IMG/VR virus record: IMGVR_UViG_2579778919_000012
DNA length: 8,472 bases
Strand: one strand, 5' to 3'
Source: a virus
Lineage: Duplodnaviria > Heunggongvirae > Uroviricota > Caudoviricetes
Of the stretch, positions 1 through 8,472 are shown one piece after another. The stretch's first letter is position 1. Every line of letters begins with the position of its first letter. The position numbers and the translations under genes were made by a program. Below the pieces are notes generated by a model. It was not told the DNA's origin, ran no database searches, and worked only from the letters and a program-made list of their open reading frames with translations.

Positions 1-648
1 TTACTTCCATCCACACGCTTTTTGAAGTGGCTTCAATGCCTCTGACAGACCAGCAACATCAAATGTCGCACTCACGGGACTTTCATTGTAAGGCGTGATC
101 TGAGTAAACATTGAGTTAGCCTGGCTCAGCGCCTTGACGAACTCGATGACATTGCCACGATAAAATACCGATTTGGTATCGCTAGATATGTCCCATGTTT
201 TCGTTTTTGCCTTCTGTTTATCCAAGCGAGATAACATCTGTGTTTCGTTCAACCCAAGATAGGTATCCCAATTGAGGAAAAGTTCTGTTTTTTTCTCGCG
301 GCAAGTGATGTAAAGACTTGGTGTGATCGATTCCCCAAACTGCGACCGGAAAGAATCATTAGCAGAAAGGCTAACATAAACATTCTCTGAATCATCCACG
401 GGTGAAGTTTTCGTGGATACCTGCCATTTTCCAACACCTACTACTGGCTTAGCCTCTTCGGCTACTTTCGGTGGAAGAACCTTATCGTAACAAGCTAAAC
501 GCGCATCACTTTTTGCCTCGGATTGGCATTTCATTAATGCGTCATTGTTAATATCGGCTTTAACTGGTTCTACCGCATACGCTGTTGATACAGCAGAAGA
601 GCAAAGCGCCATAGCAATGATTATCTTTTTCATACCATTACCTTTCAT
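1..648 (-). CDS. Hypothetical secreted/periplasmic protein (cleavable Sec signal peptide, cysteine-containing mature domain); family not recognised
   Basis: 215-aa ORF. N-terminus MKGNGMKKIIIAMALCSSAVSTAYA-VEP has a hydrophobic core and an AYA cleavage motif; no canonical lipobox. The true start may be the internal ATG at 633 (MKKIII...), which is preceded by AAGG about 7 nt upstream. The annotated ATG at 648 overlaps the upstream gene's stop as ATGA. GC is roughly 43-46% by eye, against 55-62% in the tail genes. Confidence 0.55.
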   Translation of the reverse strand: MKGNGMKKIIIAMALCSSAVSTAYAVEPVKADINNDALMKCQSEAKSDARLACYDKVLPPKVAEEAKPVVGVGKWQVSTKTSPVDDSENVYVSLSANDSFRSQFGESITPSLYITCREKKTELFLNWDTYLGLNETQMLSRLDKQKAKTKTWDISSDTKSVFYRGNVIEFVKALSQANSMFTQITPYNESPVSATFDVAGLSEALKPLQKACGWK

Positions 649-998
649 GATTTCGGGCGAGTAAAGAAAACAAACATTCCGATAATGATATCGCCAATAA
701 CCCAGATGGTTCCCAGCATCATCATCCCCAGCCCCGTACCAATTGCGGCTCCGGCCCGTTCTGCGTCTGAGGCTGCGTTATTGATAACGTCACTACTGCC
801 GCCAGCCCCGGCAAAAATGCAATAGATCATAAAGATGTTAAACAGGATAAATATCCACTTAACGATCTTGCCAAAAAATGAGCGCTTCGGCTTTCTGACC
901 TGATGGCCGCAAGACGGACATTTAAACGCTGAATCACTAATTTCTTTACTGCATTCCGGGCAGTTTACTAATGCCATTTTCCTAGACTCCATAGACAT
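645..998 (-). CDS. Small membrane protein with N-terminal zinc-ribbon (CPEC-x12-CPSC) and two predicted transmembrane helices; function unknown
   Basis: 117-aa ORF. The CxxC...CxxC motif is followed by a basic stretch (RKPKRSFFGK) and two hydrophobic segments (IVKWIFILFNIFMIYCIFAGAGG and MMMLGTIWVIGDIIIGMFVFFT). An alternative start at 977 (MALVNCPEC...) has a better GGAG/AGGA Shine-Dalgarno. The stop overlaps the downstream ORF start (ATGA), suggesting translational coupling. Confidence 0.55.
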   Translation of the reverse strand: MSMESRKMALVNCPECSKEISDSAFKCPSCGHQVRKPKRSFFGKIVKWIFILFNIFMIYCIFAGAGGSSDVINNAASDAERAGAAIGTGLGMMMLGTIWVIGDIIIGMFVFFTRPKS

Positions 999-1040: not shown

Positions 1041-1075
1041 AATAAATAAAAATTAACCCGCCATATAGGCGGGTT
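1041..1075 (-). terminator. Rho-independent terminator downstream of ogr (possibly bidirectional)
   Basis: An 8-bp GC-rich stem (1055-1062 aacccgcc pairing with 1068-1075 ggcgggtt) with a 5-nt loop. On the - strand it is followed by the T-rich tract AATTTTTATTTATT (1054..1041). It lies 3 nt after the ogr stop codon. On the + strand the same hairpin is followed by ATTTT. Confidence 0.6.
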
Positions 1076-1078
1076 ATT

Positions 1079-1321
1079 TTAGAGTGCCAGCGATAACTGA
1101 TCTTCGCCGTGGTGACTTCGTGGAAAAGCTTCTTGTGGCACCATCGCGCCGGGCGCTGGCTGGGTCTGGTTTAGTGAACCGTCTATTTCCGTCATGCTGG
1201 TGAAACAGTACCCGCACAACATATTTTGACACTGGTGATAGCTGCGTCGTACAAGCAAACTCAGCTCAACGCTGGTTCTGGTTTTTGCTATTGCACGGCA
1301 GCGAGGACAGCGCATTGCCAT
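1079..1321 (-). CDS. ogr: Ogr/Delta-family zinc-finger late transcription activator
   Basis: 80-aa ORF with Cys spacing C5-x2-C8-x22-C31-x4-C36 and the motif YHQCQN-x2-C, matching the P2 Ogr zinc finger as I recall it. Strong RBS AAGGAGG 8 nt upstream of the ATG. Sits immediately downstream of gene D, as in P2. Confidence 0.88.
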   Translation of the reverse strand: MAMRCPRCRAIAKTRTSVELSLLVRRSYHQCQNMLCGYCFTSMTEIDGSLNQTQPAPGAMVPQEAFPRSHHGEDQLSLAL

Positions 1322-1369
1322 ACGCGGGCCTCCTTTCAGGACTGGTTAATATCAACGCAAGTATAACGC

Positions 1370-2488
1370 TTAAGACGTTGAATCGTCACTCTCCGCTGTC
1401 CAGTCGTCGATTTTTACTTCCAGTTCCAGCGACGTGGTAAACCCTCCCCCGCCAATATCGTGAACGCACCGCGTTATCGTCCAGTTCCCACTGTCGATCG
1501 TGGACTTAAAGCCGTAGACGCTGGCGGGCTGTTCCGGGTACAAATCTGCGCGGCCACGCGCCAGGGTGATGCTGAACGTAGCCGCACCGCGCTGCAACTC
1601 CCGCCACTTAGCCGCAGCGGCACGCTTCGCCGCCTTTTCCGTCTTGAAGGTTTTACGTATAACAAAAACGTTACCTTCGGCCCCGGCCAGATAATCACCC
1701 TCTTTTTTGCTGGATGCAGGCTCTTTCTTTTTGGCCTGGCTGGTTCGTCGCCTGCGGGTTGTTTTCTTCACGGTAGTGGATGGTTTCTTGCCAAAGTTGA
1801 GATCAAGCCAGTATGCAGTTACGCCCGTGTACGCGTCGCGGTCAGCTACGTTAAAGCTATGTTTATCACCGCTTGACCGGACTATCTCGATCACCGGCAG
1901 CGGCTTGCCGCTCTGCGTCACTCCTTTGCCCGGCGTGATAAACAGAAGCATACCGTTTTTAATGGTTGCCACCGCGCCCAGCATTTCGGCCATGCGCGTT
2001 AAGAAGCTGATATCTGATTCACTCGTCTGATCGGCGTGGTCTATCTCAATCTTCGCCAGTTCTTCGCTGACACCCGCACGCAGATCGTAGCGACTGGCAA
2101 TGCTGGCGACCACATCCCCCACGGTAATATCGTGCCAGCTATATTCCCTTTTCACGTTGAAGGTATCGCGGAAATCTGCGCTTCTGGCACTGATCGTTAG
2201 CTGGTCAGGCGGGCCTGAATGACCTATCTCATCAACCGTATACACGCCCTTAAAAACCAATGGATCATTATCCCAGCCCAGCGCCACCGATATCTTTGCG
2301 CCGCGTGGTGGTAATGCTACCTGCCCGTCTGCATCATCCAGAGTCAGATCCAGCGTGTCCGCTTCAAATCCCCGGTTATCTGTCAGGGAAAGAGAGATCA
2401 ACCGGTTATCCAGCGCCGTAAGCTGATTACCTTCAATTTCAATACTGAACGCCGGGCGCGGCGAATATCGGTTTTCTGTCGTGTCCAT
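1370..2488 (-). CDS. D: Late control gene D protein (P2 gpD family; baseplate hub, VgrG/gp27-like)
   Basis: 372-aa ORF, close to the ~387 aa of P2 gpD, lying directly upstream of ogr on the same strand. RBS GAAGGGG 5 nt before the ATG. Contains an internal Lys/Arg-rich linker. Family call is from recalled similarity and synteny, not a search. Confidence 0.8.
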   Translation of the reverse strand: MDTTENRYSPRPAFSIEIEGNQLTALDNRLISLSLTDNRGFEADTLDLTLDDADGQVALPPRGAKISVALGWDNDPLVFKGVYTVDEIGHSGPPDQLTISARSADFRDTFNVKREYSWHDITVGDVVASIASRYDLRAGVSEELAKIEIDHADQTSESDISFLTRMAEMLGAVATIKNGMLLFITPGKGVTQSGKPLPVIEIVRSSGDKHSFNVADRDAYTGVTAYWLDLNFGKKPSTTVKKTTRRRRTSQAKKKEPASSKKEGDYLAGAEGNVFVIRKTFKTEKAAKRAAAAKWRELQRGAATFSITLARGRADLYPEQPASVYGFKSTIDSGNWTITRCVHDIGGGGFTTSLELEVKIDDWTAESDDSTS

Positions 2489-2554
2489 ATCAACCCCTTC
2501 ATCATGATGGGGTACATCGTCGCCACGCGCGCGCGCATGAACAACGCCCCGTCA

Positions 2555-2574
2555 TTGTTGCAGGTTGCTGACAA
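2555..2574. promoter_or_regulatory. Ogr-type late promoter activator site (TGT-N12-ACA dyad) in the divergent D/FI intergenic region
   Basis: Exact TTGT-N12-ACAA inverted repeat (tgt 2556-2558, aca 2571-2573), centred at 2564.5. That is about 81 bp upstream of the FI ATG and about 76 bp upstream of the D ATG. P2/P4 late promoters carry TGT-N12-ACA centred near -55. A weak -10-like GATATT lies at 2611-2616 for the + strand. Confidence 0.6.
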
Positions 2575-2645
2575 CCCTTATTCATCGCATCAGCCTGCCA
2601 TTGCCGCAATGATATTCGCAGTCATTAAACTGGCGAGGCAAATAC

Positions 2646-3839
2646 ATGGCCACTAACTACCATCACGGTGTAACCGTCACGGAAACCACCGACCTTAGCA
2701 CGATGATCACCGACATTGATTCGGCGGTGATCGGCGTTGTCTGCACCGCTGATGATGCGGACGAAACAGCGTTCCCGCTGGATACCCCTGTACTGATCAC
2801 CCGCGTGGCTAACATGCTGGGCAAGGCAGGTAAAACCGGCACCCTGTTTACCACCTTGAAAGCGATTTCAGACCAGACCAGCCCGCAAACCATTGTGATC
2901 CGCGTTGCTGATGCTGCAAATATCGAACCGCCAGAAGGCGGCACCGCACAGACACAGGATCAACTGGTTATTGGCGGCACCGATGCAAACGGACGCTTTA
3001 CCGGCATGTACGCGCTGCTGTCTGCCGAAATGCGCGTAGGCGTGCGCCCGCGTGTGCTGGCTGTTCCCGGTCTTGATACGGAAGCGGTGGCCGCACAACT
3101 CGGCGTCATTGCCGAAAAGCTGCGCGCGTTTGCTTACGTGGCAGCGAACGGCTGCAACAGCATCGCCGAAGTGAAGGAATACCGCGAACAGTTCTCCCAG
3201 CGTGAAATGATGGTTATCTGGCCTAATTTCATCTGCTACGACACCAACGCCGGAGCGAATGCCACCGTGCCCGTGGGTGCCCATGCGGTTGGGATGCGCG
3301 CCAAAATCGACGCAACGCAGGGCTGGCATAAAACCATTTCCAACGTGCCCGTTAATAACGTGCTGGGGATGGATCGGGATATCTATTTCACGTTGCAGGG
3401 CACCGATACCGACGCCGACGAACTGAACGCAGCAGGCGTTACCACGCTGATCAAGCAGGACGGCTACCGCATCTGGGGATCGCGTACCTGCGACGCGGAA
3501 ACGTATATCTTCGAAAGCTATACCCGAACCGCGCAGATCGTTGCGGATACCGTCGCCGAAGCACATTTCGCCTATGTTGATAAACCGCTTACCCCGTCGC
3601 TGGTAAAGGACATTGTGGACGGCATCAATAAGAAGCTGACCTCATATGTGACGGCTGGCAAGCTGCTGGGCGCCCGCTGCTGGTATGACCCGGAACCGAA
3701 TACCTCGGAAACCCTGCGCAATGGTCAACTGACCATTAAGTACAACTACACCCCTGTTCCACCGCTGGAAAATCTCAGCCTGGTACAGGAGTTCACCGAC
3801 GAATATTTCGCTACGTTTTCCAGCGCAGTGAATAACTAA
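2646..3839 (+). CDS. FI: Contractile tail sheath protein (P2 gpFI family)
   Basis: 397-aa ORF (P2 FI is ~396 aa). N-terminus MATNYHHGVTV resembles P2 FI (MSDYHHGVQV) as recalled, with conserved-looking blocks such as LRAFAY, WHKT and YTPVPPLENL. RBS GAGG 7 nt upstream. Followed by the tube gene. Confidence 0.9.
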   Translation: MATNYHHGVTVTETTDLSTMITDIDSAVIGVVCTADDADETAFPLDTPVLITRVANMLGKAGKTGTLFTTLKAISDQTSPQTIVIRVADAANIEPPEGGTAQTQDQLVIGGTDANGRFTGMYALLSAEMRVGVRPRVLAVPGLDTEAVAAQLGVIAEKLRAFAYVAANGCNSIAEVKEYREQFSQREMMVIWPNFICYDTNAGANATVPVGAHAVGMRAKIDATQGWHKTISNVPVNNVLGMDRDIYFTLQGTDTDADELNAAGVTTLIKQDGYRIWGSRTCDAETYIFESYTRTAQIVADTVAEAHFAYVDKPLTPSLVKDIVDGINKKLTSYVTAGKLLGARCWYDPEPNTSETLRNGQLTIKYNYTPVPPLENLSLVQEFTDEYFATFSSAVNN

Positions 3840-3851
3840 CCGGGGGCGCTT

Positions 3852-4367
3852 ATGGCACTGCCTAAGAAACTCAAATATTTCAATATGTTCTTTGACGGGG
3901 ATAACTACTTCGGCATGGTGCCGGAAATCACCCCCGCCAAACTCACCAAAAAAACCGAAGACTACCAAGCGGGCGGTATGCCGGGTTCGGTTGCGGTGGA
4001 TCTGGGCTTCGACGCTGGCGCCCTGGATATGGATATCACGCTGGGCGGCATGGATGCAGGGCTAATGAAAAAATGGGGCGTTACCACTGCGGACGGAATG
4101 CAGGTGCGCTTTGCTGGCTCTTACCAGGACGATGCGACCGGCGACGCCGTACCGTGCGAAATCCAGACGCGTGGCCGCTTCACTGAACTGGATCCCGGTT
4201 CGGCAAAGGTTGGGGATGATACTTCGCATAAGTACACCCTGAAAAACACCTATTACAAGCTGACCATCAATAGCGAAGAAATTATCGAAATTGATGTGCT
4301 CAACATGATCTACAAAGTTGCCGGTGTGGATGTGCTGGAAAAACACCGCGCTAACATCGGCTTATAA
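3852..4367 (+). CDS. FII: Tail tube protein (P2 gpFII family)
   Basis: 171-aa ORF (P2 FII is ~172 aa). Begins MALPKKLK and ends HRANIGL, resembling P2 FII as recalled. Sits immediately after the sheath gene, separated by 12 bp. Confidence 0.88.
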   Translation: MALPKKLKYFNMFFDGDNYFGMVPEITPAKLTKKTEDYQAGGMPGSVAVDLGFDAGALDMDITLGGMDAGLMKKWGVTTADGMQVRFAGSYQDDATGDAVPCEIQTRGRFTELDPGSAKVGDDTSHKYTLKNTYYKLTINSEEIIEIDVLNMIYKVAGVDVLEKHRANIGL

Positions 4368-4381
4368 GGAAACCCGGCACC

Positions 4382-4717
4382 ATGAGCAAGACCAAAGAAA
4401 ACACCGTTATTCTTACCGCCCCTATTACGCGCGGTAAGACCAAAATCACCGAAGTGGCGATCACTTCCGTGCTTAAACAGGCTGGATCACTGCGCGGCTT
4501 AAAAGCCTATGACGTGCTGACGTCCAACTATGACGCGCTGGTTATTCTGCTGCCCCGCGTTACCGCTCCGGCATTAACCGCCGATGAGATTGCCCGAATG
4601 GATACCTGGGATTTTTGCCAGTTAGCCAACGCGGTGGTTGATTTTTTGCAACCCTCTTCGGATCTGACCGCGACGGATACGGGCAACGAATCATCCGATG
4701 CCCCTGCGAACGCATAG
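4382..4717 (+). CDS. E: Tail assembly chaperone gpE (zero-frame product)
   Basis: 111-aa ORF between the tube and tape measure genes. RBS AAGGAAAC upstream. Contains the slippery heptamer T_TTT_TTG at 4642-4648 in the frame expected for a -1 shift. Confidence 0.8.
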   Translation: MSKTKENTVILTAPITRGKTKITEVAITSVLKQAGSLRGLKAYDVLTSNYDALVILLPRVTAPALTADEIARMDTWDFCQLANAVVDFLQPSSDLTATDTGNESSDAPANA

Positions 4718-4842
4718 AAGACCTGATGGCAGATATCGCCGTCATATTCCACTGGCGGCCGGTAGAGATGGACGCCATGACGGTACAGGAAATACTGTTA
4801 TGGCGTGATCAGGCGGCTGCGCGCAGTGGTGGAGATCACTAA
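4382..4842 (+). CDS. E': Tail assembly chaperone gpE+E' (-1 frameshift fusion product, about 153 aa)
   Basis: E residues 1-89 followed by 64 codons in the -1 frame (ATLFGSDRDGYGQRIIRCPCERIEDLMADIAVIFHWRPVEMDAMTVQEILLWRDQAAARSGGDH). I translated this by hand and found no stop. The fusion stop TAA (4840-4842) abuts the T start codon at 4843. Confidence 0.6.
4642..4648 (+). other. Programmed -1 ribosomal frameshift slippery site (TTTTTTG) for gpE to gpE+E'
   Basis: The heptamer T TTT TTG is in the X_XXY_YYZ register of the E frame (codons TTT 4643-4645, TTG 4646-4648). The -1 frame is open from 4648 to a TAA at 4840-4842. The same heptamer is used in P2 E/E'. Confidence 0.65.
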
Positions 4843-7800
4843 ATGGCAGACCGCAATTTAAATATCAGGGTGGCATTCAGCGCCCTGAATAATATGTCCC
4901 GCCCTGTCAACGCGGCGCGCCAGAGTGCCGCCGCGTTGGCGTCTCAAATCAATCAGACCAAAACCAGCATTAAAGGGCTTGAGCGTCAGGCAACCAGCTT
5001 TGACCGCCTCACCGCAGCCAATAAAAAAACCACCGAACAACTGGCCCAGGCGAAAGAACAGGCCCGGCAAATGGCGGCGGCTTATGGCCCGTTACGCCAG
5101 CGCAGCGCCGAACAGGTTGCCGCCCTCAATCAGCAACGTGCAGCCATTCGCCAGTTAACCCAGCAGCAGAAAGGCGAGCAGACGCAGCTTAACCAGTTGC
5201 GCGCCAGCTTCTACAGCGAAGGCATTGCGATCAGCAGCGCCAGCCGGGCGACGGAACAGATCAACCAGCGCACCGCGCAATACAACCGCCAGCTTGCCGA
5301 ACAGCAGCGACGGCTTGACGCTGTTAACCAGGCGCAGGCCCGTTACAGCCGCGCCAAAGAAACCGGCGAAAAGATGATGAGCGGGGGGATGAAAACCGCC
5401 GCAGTAGGGGCGGCAACCCTCGCACCTGTCGCCGCTGCGGTTAAATCATACAGCAGCCTTGAAGACGCCATGAAAGGCGTAGCCAAACAGGTAAACGGCT
5501 TGCGTGACGACAGCGGCAACCGCACCCCGCAGTATGAAGAAATGCAGCGGGCGATCATGGATGCCAGCGAAAAGCTACCAATGGCTAACGGCGCTGTTGA
5601 CTATGCCGCCCTGGTCGAAGGTGGCGCGCGCATGGGCGTGGCAAACAGCGATGATCCGTGGGAAAAACAAAAAGCCGATCTGCTGGCTTTCGCCAGCATG
5701 GCGGCAAAAGCTTCGGTAGCCTTTGAACTGCCCGCCGATCAGCTTTCTGAAAGCCTCGGTAAGATTGCCGGGCTGTATAAAATCCCTACCCAGAATATTG
5801 AACAGTTAGGCGACGCCATAAACTACCTGGACGATAACGCGAAGTCGAAAGGCTCCGATATTATCGACGTGCTCCAGCGCGTTGGCGGACTTGCCAGCCA
5901 ACTGGATTACAAGCAAGCCGCCGCGCTGGGTTCCACCTTCCTGACGCTTGGATCACCTGCCGAAGTTGCCGCCAGCGCAACCAATGCAATGGTGCGCGAA
6001 CTATCGATCGCCACAGTACAAAGCGATAAATTTTTGGGTGCGCTGGATGAAATCGGCATCAATGCTGAAAAAGTCCAGAAAAGCATGTCAGTGGACGCGA
6101 TGGGCACGATCATTTCAGTGCTGGAAGCGTCCAAAAAACTTGCACCAGATAAGCAGGTAGCCAACCTTACTCAGATTTTCGGTAAAGAGTTCGGCGATGA
6201 TGCGCAGAAACTTGCGAACAACCTGCCCGAACTACGCCGCCAGATAGAACTGACGCAGGGCGCAGCCGCTAAAGGTTCCATGAATCGGGAATCTGATATC
6301 AATAAAGCGTCCCTTTCAGCTCAGTGGCAACTGACCAAAACCGGCGCGGTTAACGCATTGAGTTCAGCAGGGGAAACGCTCCGCGAACCGCTGATGGATA
6401 TCATGCTTACCGTCAGTAAGGTGGTTGGCAGCGTCCGCCGCTGTGTTGAGGCAAACCCGGCTCTGGTTGGCTCAATCATGAAAGTCACCGCAGCCATAGG
6501 CGCGTTGCTGGTTGTCGTGGGTGGCCTGATGCTGACCATCGGCGCAGTGCTCGGCCCGATGGCACTTGTTCGCCTCAGCTTCACCACGCTGGCTGGCTCC
6601 GGTGGGGTAACTCCCCTCATAGGCTCGCTGGGAAAATTATCCAGCACATTACGCGGGCTGATCCCCTCACTATCTGGCGTGGGCCGAAGTATTAAAGACT
6701 GGCCTGCCCTCTTCCGATCTGCTGCGTCTGGCATTACCCAATTTAGTAAACAAGCTATTGGCGGGTTAAACACAGCGTTAATGGCACTTTCACGCGGTGC
6801 TGTTGCTGCCGGACAGGGGCTATTTACCCTATTCACAAGGCCTATGACGGCTATAACCTGGCTTGGTAATGGCCTCAGAACTCTGGCGACCTCCGGTTTC
6901 GGCGCTTTGCTGAACGTTGGACGCACCGTAATGATGGCGTTGGGTGGCGGGTTATCATTACTTCTTAGCCCTATTGGAATACTGGTAATCGCTTTATCAG
7001 CAGCAGCGATCGCCGTTATTAAATTCTGGGAACCTATAAAAGCCTTTTTCACTGGCTTTTACACCGGGTTAATGAGTGGCTTACAGCCTTTAACCTCAGC
7101 ATTTAGTACAGCCTTTGCACCACTAGCCCCACTCTTTGACTCTATCGGTAATGCTGTCGGTGGCGTCTGGGAGTGGTTCACAAAACTATTCGAACCTATC
7201 CAGTTCTCCAGCGAAGCGCTAGCCTCCTGCACCAGTGCCGGGGAAACGTTCGGTAAGGTTGTAGGTAACGCTCTATCTGCATTAACACCAATAATCGAAG
7301 GAATAGCGCGCGGTATAGGATGGGTACTGGAAAAACTCGGCGCCATCCCCGACGCAACAAAAGCAGCGCAGCAAGCTGCGGAAAGTATGCACAAAGACCC
7401 TGTTGTCTGGGAGTGGGATCCGCAGCAAAAGAAAATGGTTAAAAAGGGTTGGAACTGGTCGCCGAAAGACGATCAGCAGAAGAAAACCAACCAGAAGCAA
7501 CAGCAGGCCATTGACCAGCAGAAAAAGCAGGAAAGCTTAATTAACTCGCTCAAGGGCCCGGCCAACATCGTGCCGAAGATGAGCAGCAGCCTGGATAAGA
7601 TCGCCACCAATACCACGGAGAAGAAAGACGGCCCCGGCGAAATTGTCTTCAAGAATAAGCAGCCCTATATCCCGATCCGTGGTGGATATTCGGAACCGCT
7701 TAAGCAGGTGCAGCGCCAACTACCATCCCTTACCGATTGGGTGACGCAGCAGGCCGGATCGCTGATCGCTTCCGTTACGCCTTGGCAGGTTGAGAAGCCC

Positions 7801-8013
7801 GCCGCACGGATGCCTGTTTCGGCGTCTCCGTCTGCGGCTTCCGTCGCTGCGCTGATGCCTGCTCCGGGTGGCGATGTATATAACCTTAACTTCGACTTTA
7901 GCGGCCAGAAACTGGATGAAGAAACCATTATCAGGCGCGTGCGCGAAGAACTTGCGTTAGCGAAGCAACAGGCCGACCGGCGCAAGCGCTCCCAACTGAC
8001 CGATCACGTCTAA
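4843..8013 (+). CDS. T: Tail tape measure protein (P2 gpT family)
   Basis: 1056-aa ORF in the canonical position after E/E'. It has a Gln/Ala-rich N-terminal coiled-coil-like region, a central Gly/Ala/Leu-rich hydrophobic segment and a Lys/Gln-rich C-terminal stretch, all typical of tape measure proteins. It is longer than P2 gpT (~815 aa). Confidence 0.9.
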   Translation: MADRNLNIRVAFSALNNMSRPVNAARQSAAALASQINQTKTSIKGLERQATSFDRLTAANKKTTEQLAQAKEQARQMAAAYGPLRQRSAEQVAALNQQRAAIRQLTQQQKGEQTQLNQLRASFYSEGIAISSASRATEQINQRTAQYNRQLAEQQRRLDAVNQAQARYSRAKETGEKMMSGGMKTAAVGAATLAPVAAAVKSYSSLEDAMKGVAKQVNGLRDDSGNRTPQYEEMQRAIMDASEKLPMANGAVDYAALVEGGARMGVANSDDPWEKQKADLLAFASMAAKASVAFELPADQLSESLGKIAGLYKIPTQNIEQLGDAINYLDDNAKSKGSDIIDVLQRVGGLASQLDYKQAAALGSTFLTLGSPAEVAASATNAMVRELSIATVQSDKFLGALDEIGINAEKVQKSMSVDAMGTIISVLEASKKLAPDKQVANLTQIFGKEFGDDAQKLANNLPELRRQIELTQGAAAKGSMNRESDINKASLSAQWQLTKTGAVNALSSAGETLREPLMDIMLTVSKVVGSVRRCVEANPALVGSIMKVTAAIGALLVVVGGLMLTIGAVLGPMALVRLSFTTLAGSGGVTPLIGSLGKLSSTLRGLIPSLSGVGRSIKDWPALFRSAASGITQFSKQAIGGLNTALMALSRGAVAAGQGLFTLFTRPMTAITWLGNGLRTLATSGFGALLNVGRTVMMALGGGLSLLLSPIGILVIALSAAAIAVIKFWEPIKAFFTGFYTGLMSGLQPLTSAFSTAFAPLAPLFDSIGNAVGGVWEWFTKLFEPIQFSSEALASCTSAGETFGKVVGNALSALTPIIEGIARGIGWVLEKLGAIPDATKAAQQAAESMHKDPVVWEWDPQQKKMVKKGWNWSPKDDQQKKTNQKQQQAIDQQKKQESLINSLKGPANIVPKMSSSLDKIATNTTEKKDGPGEIVFKNKQPYIPIRGGYSEPLKQVQRQLPSLTDWVTQQAGSLIASVTPWQVEKPAARMPVSASPSAASVAALMPAPGGDVYNLNFDFSGQKLDEETIIRRVREELALAKQQADRRKRSQLTDHV

Positions 8014-8022
8014 GGCAATATC

Positions 8023-8472
8023 ATGATGATGATTCTGGGGATGTTCCCCTTTTCACTGCAAACCACACCTTACCAGAGTGCGAATAAAACCAACTCCTGG
8101 CGGCACGTCAAAAACGATCGCGTGGGGAAATCCCCGCGCTATCAGTTCATCGGCGCAGATGAAGAACCGTTCGTACTCAGCGGCACGCTGTACCCCGAAA
8201 TAAGCGGCGGTGATGTGTCGCTTGTCATGCTGGAAACTATGGCTTTTTCCGGGCGCCCGTGGCCCCTGATAGAAGGCACGGGCAGGATCTACGGCATGTA
8301 TGTAATTGAGCAGATCACGCAAAACCGGACGGAGTTTTTTAAGGACGGGAAGGCAAAGAAAATTGATTTCACGCTCAACCTGAAACGGGTAAGCGAGGAC
8401 ATACGGGAAAAGCTGGCTGAAACCACTACCGACGATCTCTTCTCTCTGGTGAAAACCAACCTTTCGATATAA
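8023..8472 (+). CDS. U: Tail protein gpU (P2 GpU family)
   Basis: 149-aa ORF directly after T (P2 gpU is ~159 aa). N-terminus MMMILGMFPF and the blocks RPWPLIEGTGRIYGMYVI and RTEFFKDG resemble P2 gpU as recalled. The stop codon is the last triplet of the window. Confidence 0.85.
   Translation: MMMILGMFPFSLQTTPYQSANKTNSWRHVKNDRVGKSPRYQFIGADEEPFVLSGTLYPEISGGDVSLVMLETMAFSGRPWPLIEGTGRIYGMYVIEQITQNRTEFFKDGKAKKIDFTLNLKRVSEDIREKLAETTTDDLFSLVKTNLSI

Follow-up and report, generated by a model that had tools for sequence, protein, structure and literature searches.

A basic loop in the baseplate hub protein gpD of a P2-like prophage is shared with phages P2 and 186 and may tether the hub to the baseplate wedges

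The contractile tail of phage P2 has recently been described by cryo-EM of the virion in a bioRxiv preprint of September 2026 (10.64898/2026.09.14.750843). The preprint cites coordinates of the P2 baseplate under PDB 29ND and 29NE and EMD-57254. As presented in the text of that preprint, gpD is built as a trimeric hub located below six copies of gpU and above the spike gpV, and contacts the gpJ2-gpI wedge electrostatically through a "gpD hub-triplex contact loop" (10.64898/2026.09.14.750843). In three of the six gpU subunits, the C-terminal helix alternates with this loop and is sterically excluded by it, which breaks the C6 symmetry to C3 (10.64898/2026.09.14.750843). [quoted passage not shown] According to the same account, the sequence of L23 is conserved in Peduovirus, Vimunumvirus, and Duonihilunusvirus, Senquatrovirus not being among the genera that its text names (10.64898/2026.09.14.750843). 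Pulling by the fibres is proposed to disrupt the hub-wedge contacts and thereby to start contraction, and the P2 baseplate is reported to be lost from the contracted virion (10.64898/2026.09.14.750843).

Several other hubs are available for comparison with the gpD examined in the current study. The hub of pyocin R2 (PDB 6u5h chain C) is its closest solved relative (E=5e-40) and exhibits the same hub fold (Foldseek TM-scores 0.67 and 0.78). When the PDB was searched with phmmer, pyocin R2 was the only sequence relative of gpD to be returned, with no entry for P2 gpD. At the hairpin that is the subject of this report, pyocin R2 has approximately 25 residues that carry no net charge, and its alignment with our gpD is gapped exactly there. 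A literature search on the details of the pyocin hub returned nothing specific to the gpD loop. T4 gp27, Mu gp44, and the gp27-like modules of VgrG likewise have the common fold of two tube-like domains plus an inserted domain, although their sequence identity is only 8-15% and the comparison showed no basic loop in them.

The gpD gene under study is encoded within a window of 8472 nt (the whole stretch of DNA that was analysed), which corresponds to the tail-gene region of a P2-like (Peduoviridae) prophage, the wedge genes J and I lying outside of the window. Its genes are as follows:

1-648, minus strand: gene for a VasI/TagO-like lipoprotein, type VI secretion-associated (PF11319, E=2.7e-13)
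645-998, minus strand: gene for a zinc-ribbon membrane protein (Pfam search of the window)
1079-1321, minus strand: ogr, encoding a zinc-finger protein (PF04606)
1370-2488, minus strand: gpD, the predicted baseplate hub protein, 372 aa (PF05954, phrog_52, homology, AlphaFold2 and Foldseek)
2646-3839, plus strand: FI, sheath (Pfam match)
3852-4367, plus strand: FII, tube (Pfam match)
4382-4717, plus strand: E, chaperone (Pfam match)
4843-8013, plus strand: T, tape measure
8023-8472, plus strand: gpU, tube initiator, 149 aa (PF06995 spans aa 6-125)

At the nucleotide level, the Salmonella phages SEN4 and SEN5 (genus Senquatrovirus) match positions 1055-8472 with 93.7% identity over the aligned pieces, of which there are two, together covering 77% of the window. 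The gpD gene sits in a context of contractile-tail genes recognized by Pfam (FI, FII, E, and gpU), with ogr directly adjacent. Whereas the order in P2 is FI-FII-E-T-U-D-ogr on a single strand, the D-ogr pair of the window (1079-2488, minus) is divergent from FI-FII-E-T-U (2646-8472, plus), so the FI-U block is inverted relative to P2 and D is detached from the F operon. The arrangement found in SEN5 is the same as that of the window.

Its assignment is supported by both sequence and predicted structure. The protein matches PF05954 (Phage_GPD) over aa 46-346 with E=1e-18 and 68.1 bits (cut-off 30.1) as well as phrog_52, "tail protein", with E=5.6e-157. It is 98.7% identical in amino acid sequence to the "late control D protein" of SEN5 and 48.5% identical to P2 gpD, while a Salmonella enterica protein cluster of 619 members is 99% identical to it. 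A single-sequence AlphaFold model of gpD was unusable (pLDDT 36) and was replaced by an AlphaFold2 model based upon a 120-sequence alignment, which reached a mean pLDDT of 90.4 and a pTM of 0.87. The modeled fold consists of two tube-like beta/alpha domains and an inserted alpha/beta domain, and Foldseek matched it with a probability of 1.00 to the hubs of pyocin R2 (6u5h), Mu (9ki1/1wru), AFP, PVC, VgrG, and T4 gp27. Judged from the model, the gpD product is a baseplate hub protein.

Within this protein, a single strongly basic segment occupies the tip of a hairpin, which is delimited by the following features:

1805..1825, minus strand: upstream hairpin strand GVTAYWL, aa 222-228, a conserved anchor (model strand and alignment)
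1703..1804, minus strand: whole loop, aa 229-262, devoid of regular secondary structure (DSSP and pLDDT of the AlphaFold2 model)
1694..1789, minus strand: basic peptide KKPSTTVKKTTRRRRTSQAKKKEPASSKKEGD, aa 234-265 (computed coordinates)
1682..1702, minus strand: returning hairpin strand EGDYLAG, aa 263-269, a conserved anchor (model strand and alignment)

The existence of a Lys/Arg-rich stretch in gpD had been the starting point of the original prediction, and the peptide is indeed present exactly as it was quoted. Its position had been given as 1703-1795, which is the right place, but these coordinates are off by 6-9 nt (2-3 codons) and translate to FGKKPST...SSKK. The richest 32-residue span, aa 232-263, contains 13 Lys/Arg residues (41%), compared to 10% in the remainder of the protein, and 2 of its 32 residues are hydrophobic vs 30% elsewhere. 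When the whole protein was shuffled, 13 Lys/Arg residues within any 32-residue span were reached in 53 of 20000 trials. The net charge of the loop (aa 229-262) is +11, whereas that of the rest of gpD is -16. The segment was also thought to be probably disordered, and both lines of prediction agree with this. Firstly, its charge-hydropathy value (H=0.29, with the boundary at 0.53) falls on the disordered side. Secondly, in an otherwise confident AlphaFold2 model the loop is devoid of regular secondary structure between the strands at aa 222-228 and 263-269, and consecutive 10-residue blocks through it have pLDDT values of 76, 61, and 86, with flanks of at least 90. The loop is therefore probably flexible, as far as the model can indicate. 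Its location in the fold differs from that originally envisaged, an insertion between hub domains. In the AlphaFold2 model it forms a beta-hairpin tip, between strands two and three of the second tube-like domain, so it is not an inter-domain linker.

At the DNA level, a search for promoter-like and terminator-like sites found none within the loop coding DNA (1694-1804), and an Rfam search of the whole window returned no match. The loop coding DNA contains only short, imperfect direct repeats with a 21-nt spacing, which fits the repeated Lys/Ser codons of a low-complexity segment. Two antisense ORFs at 1460-1876 and 1707-2030 have no PHROG match and were taken to be spurious.

We compared the loop with those of P2 gpD (AAD03295, translated from AF063097), 186 gpD (NP_052275), and the SEN5 late control D protein (ALF02367). 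The belief that P2 gpD is without such a stretch turned out to be wrong. The P2 protein reads ...YTGVTAKWLHTKDPKPQKQKVKLKRKKKEKHLRALEHPKAKPVRQKKAPKVPEAREGEYMAGEADNVF... around the loop and TKDPKPQKQKVKLKRKKKEKHLRALEHPKAKPVRQKKAPKVPEAREGEY at the equivalent position of the alignment, with 186 nearly identical to it. Upstream of the loop, residues Y220, T221, G222, V223, A225, W227, and L228 are invariant, as are G264, Y266, G269, N273, and V274 downstream of it. The loop is thus framed by a YTGVTA.W strand and a G.Y..G..N strand, and the basic stretches of P2 and 186 fall into the same columns between them. The residues between the anchors number 56 in P2 (net charge +11), 57 in 186 (+9), and 44 in the window (interval 229-272, +8). 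In other respects, the P2 and 186 proteins belong to a common Pfam family with the window's gpD and have common hairpin anchors, at an overall identity of about 49%. The central EKHLRALEHPKAKP motif of P2 is missing from the window loop, which has an RRRR tract there instead and cannot be aligned residue by residue with that motif. The gpD of SEN4/SEN5 is 98.7% identical over its full length and has an identical loop, which leaves essentially no difference between these proteins.

It is almost certain from these comparisons that the window loop is the same loop as that of P2 and 186 gpD. An insertion confined to the lineage of this phage, as had been proposed, is contradicted by loops in P2 and 186 that are 12-13 residues longer and occupy the same columns, which is the very result that the original prediction had named as its refutation; a basic stretch is a regular part of canonical gpD. 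The other option offered at the time, simple natural variation, describes the case well, since the loop of the window represents a conserved loop in a form that is shorter and has diverged in sequence.

To place the loop in a family context, 3549 gpD relatives were collected using HMMER from 1.84 billion cluster representatives, and the hairpin was surveyed in the best 150 of the 3549 plus P2, 186, and the window, which yielded 135 distinct segments with lengths of 16-176 aa. Of these 135, 69 are tight hairpins (16-20 aa) whose net charge is close to zero, 48 measure 31-60 aa (32 of the 48 with a net charge of at least +4), and 9 measure 99-176 aa. Most family representatives are without aa 241-268 of the window's gpD, and no other internal segment of the protein behaves in this way. 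An alignment of named phages shows the basic expansion, at 31-76 aa, in P2, 186, SEN5, Aeromonas LPM4 (45 aa, +5), Mannheimia PHL101 (76 aa, +11), and Ralstonia YO159_4 (45 aa, +4). A hairpin of 16-18 aa is found in Pseudomonas Dobby (Citexvirus, phiCTX-like), Burkholderia vB_SR3, Xanthomonas FoX1, E. coli Bas97, and Vibrio VP58.5. Judging by these sequences, the expansion is lineage-specific only at a much deeper level, as it is lacking in pyocin R2, in the phiCTX-like, Burkholderia, Xanthomonas, and Vibrio relatives, and in approximately half of the family representatives overall.

In four relatives with long inserts (P0133, P0141, P0145, and P0160), a strand-hairpin-strand-helix unit equivalent to aa 215-302 matches two to three times in tandem, with the matches in P0160 located at 221-291, 295-366, and 368-439. 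Tandem units at the hairpin site mark it as a duplication hot spot of hub proteins, on the scale of whole domains. T4 gp27 presumably carries an additional complete domain at the equivalent position of its second tube-like domain, and if that insertion does correspond, the site would be an ancient insertion point.

In a set of 119 close homologs, each with at least 64% identity to the window's gpD, 52 distinct loop variants of 26-46 aa were encountered. In these 119 proteins, the loop is on average 0.46 identical to that of the window, compared to 0.75 for the rest of the protein, with the loop ends NFGK..T.V and ASS.KEG being conserved. Despite this drift in both sequence and length, the net charge remains between +7 and +14 in 52 of 52 variants, which indicates that the charge is selected rather than the sequence. 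Retention of charge and flexibility in place of sequence is the signature of an electrostatic tether, not of a neutral spacer.

Several lines of evidence connect this loop with the module described in P2. It is probably L23, a loop for which the main text of the preprint gives no residue numbers (10.64898/2026.09.14.750843), given that 1) no other internal loop of P2-type gpD is elongated, 2) it lies between the second and third strands, and 3) it is highly charged. Set against the module of the preprint, the window would then supply both of its parts, namely an elongated gpD loop, here basic, and a C-terminal tail on gpU (10.64898/2026.09.14.750843). The latter comprises aa 126-149 (window 8398-8469, plus strand), 24 residues beyond the PF06995 core, and is a candidate for the partner "helix" of the loop-helix module, its helicity being putative. 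The annotated lengths of gpU, which are 159, 161, 163, and 145 aa in phages that have the loop, 146 and 141 aa in loop-less phages, and 149 aa in the window, differ too little (141-163 aa overall) to be informative, in the absence of structures, on whether a longer gpU tail accompanies the gpD loop.

An electrostatic tether between the hub and the wedges is, in our estimation, the best explanation for the loop and a reasonably likely one, although the wedge contact itself is inferred. Homology to the loops of P2 and 186, location within the fold, predicted flexibility, and conservation of charge despite drift in sequence and length were all observed here. According to this explanation, a flexible polycationic arm of approximately 34 residues would emerge between two conserved strands of an otherwise acidic gpD. 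In the assembled tail before contraction, each of the three gpD subunits of the hub would extend its loop, so that three of the six wedge complexes (the gpJ2-gpI "triplex") are reached and held electrostatically, the remaining three wedges being held by the C-terminal helices of gpU. Once the fibres bind their receptor, the weak loop-wedge contacts would be released as part of baseplate triggering. The wedge contact of the window's phage may differ from that of P2, because its loop is 12-13 residues shorter and is without EKHLRALEHPKAKP.

An envelope- or cargo-facing role after triggering would be compatible with such a wedge tether, yet we regard this role as rather unlikely. In this scenario the polycationic loops would become exposed when the baseplate has detached and hub and spike pass through the outer membrane, and would then bind anionic partners. 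DNA, peptidoglycan, LPS or phospholipid head groups, or the tape-measure protein on its way out are the possible partners, and binding could aid penetration or channel formation. A positive charge that is strongly conserved (+7 to +14) independently of sequence would suit this role, and for the Mu gp44 hub, membrane contact through a positively charged surface was reportedly proposed. Loss of the P2 baseplate from the contracted virion, as the preprint describes it, would also expose the hub (10.64898/2026.09.14.750843). However, the loop is missing in many contractile systems that cross similar envelopes, pyocin R2 as well as phiCTX-like and Burkholderia P2-like phages among them, and in the sole structural report an elongated gpD loop is found where the hub meets the wedge (10.64898/2026.09.14.750843).

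It is less probable still that the loop is a neutral low-complexity spacer, i.e. an insertion-tolerant hairpin tip that became Lys-rich by slippage at A-rich codons and has no specific function. The site does behave as an insertion hot spot (16-176 aa among the best 150 of 3549 relatives plus P2, 186, and the window), close relatives already differ in both the length and the sequence of the loop, and the coding DNA contains the short imperfect repeats noted above. A drifting spacer, however, would not be expected to keep its charge in all 52 variants or to conserve the motifs at its two ends, and the basic character recurs in P2, 186, and the Aeromonas, Mannheimia, and Ralstonia phages, whose gpD proteins are only 44-50% identical to that of the window. 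The historical annotation "late control D protein", together with a KR-rich composition resembling that of nucleic-acid-binding tails, could suggest a nucleic-acid-binding motif tied to a regulatory function of gpD, but we consider this highly improbable: gpD has the structural fold of a baseplate hub and is described as the hub trimer of the P2 virion (10.64898/2026.09.14.750843), the Pfam and PHROG searches found no DNA-binding domain in it, and the regulator of the late genes is the adjacent zinc-finger protein Ogr (PF04606). An insertion peculiar to the window's lineage, for which the sole support is the failure of the loop to align residue by residue with the central motif of P2, is refuted for practical purposes by the longer basic loops of P2 and 186 at the same columns.

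Returning to the electrostatic tether as the preferred explanation, one could combine it with the other observations into a broader and decidedly speculative proposal, in which the loop is a tunable electrostatic latch that is adjusted by genus, engages the envelope at a later stage, and sits at an evolvable insertion port of the hub. If this were true, several consequences would follow. Firstly, the loop could set how firmly the three wedges contacted by the hub are held, and hence both the triggering threshold and the stability of a P2-type baseplate. Secondly, different genera would have tuned the loop independently over a range of 26-76 residues, with charge being conserved while length and sequence evolve rapidly. 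Thirdly, a polycation exposed after firing could help the hub to engage an anionic envelope. Lastly, the hairpin tip would serve gp27-like hubs in general as an evolvable port for insertions; some members carry two to three tandem hairpin-helix units at this site.

As a feature, the loop is ordinary and already known, being a conserved part of P2-type hub proteins. Its discovery value is small, as annotated Salmonella prophage and SEN5 proteins match the gene product at 98.7-99% identity, and a probable structural role of the loop has only just been described for P2, to judge from the text of the preprint (10.64898/2026.09.14.750843). What the analysis does contribute is the correction of a false premise, since P2 does carry a basic stretch, and a comparative point that is possibly useful for work on P2-like baseplates or engineered tailocins, namely that the loop is defined by its charge and not by its sequence. 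Across genera the loop ranges from 26 to 76 residues, phiCTX- and pyocin-type hubs are without it, and the same site is used elsewhere for far larger insertions.

Several additional features of the window were noted. Homology to SEN5 ends at 1055, and beyond ogr there are two cargo genes (window 1-998, minus strand) that do not follow ogr in SEN5. A terminator-like hairpin at 1054-1076 separates ogr from these two genes. The zinc-ribbon gene is also present in other P2-like phages, and the record of Citrobacter phage Shae_phiSM labels the matching gene "tagO". The tape-measure gene T is 3171 nt long (1056 aa) in the window vs 2925 nt in SEN5; combined with the division of the SEN5 match into two pieces, this suggests an indel or a divergent segment within T, with a possible difference in tail length. 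Between the stop codon of E and the start of T there is a 125-nt gap (4718-4842, plus strand) in which a small separate ORF is annotated in SEN5, and this gap presumably represents the E+E' extension by programmed frameshifting that is typical of P2-like tail chaperones.

Two potential regulatory sites were also found. A sigma-70-like promoter match, GTGACG-18-TATACT, at 1360-1389 (minus strand) overlaps the 3' end of gpD upstream of ogr and is a plausible candidate for an ogr promoter on the basis of its consensus match. Furthermore, the only TGT-N12-ACA dyad of the window, which we take to be the P2 Ogr-type late-promoter element, is located at 2556-2573, inside the 157-bp gap between the divergent start codons of gpD and FI. 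By chance, a window of this length would contain approximately 1.6 of these dyads, and the probability of one falling into the gpD-FI gap is roughly 0.03. Plausible start sites lie some 55 nt from its centre in either direction, so two divergent late promoters might be served by a single palindromic site for the activator.
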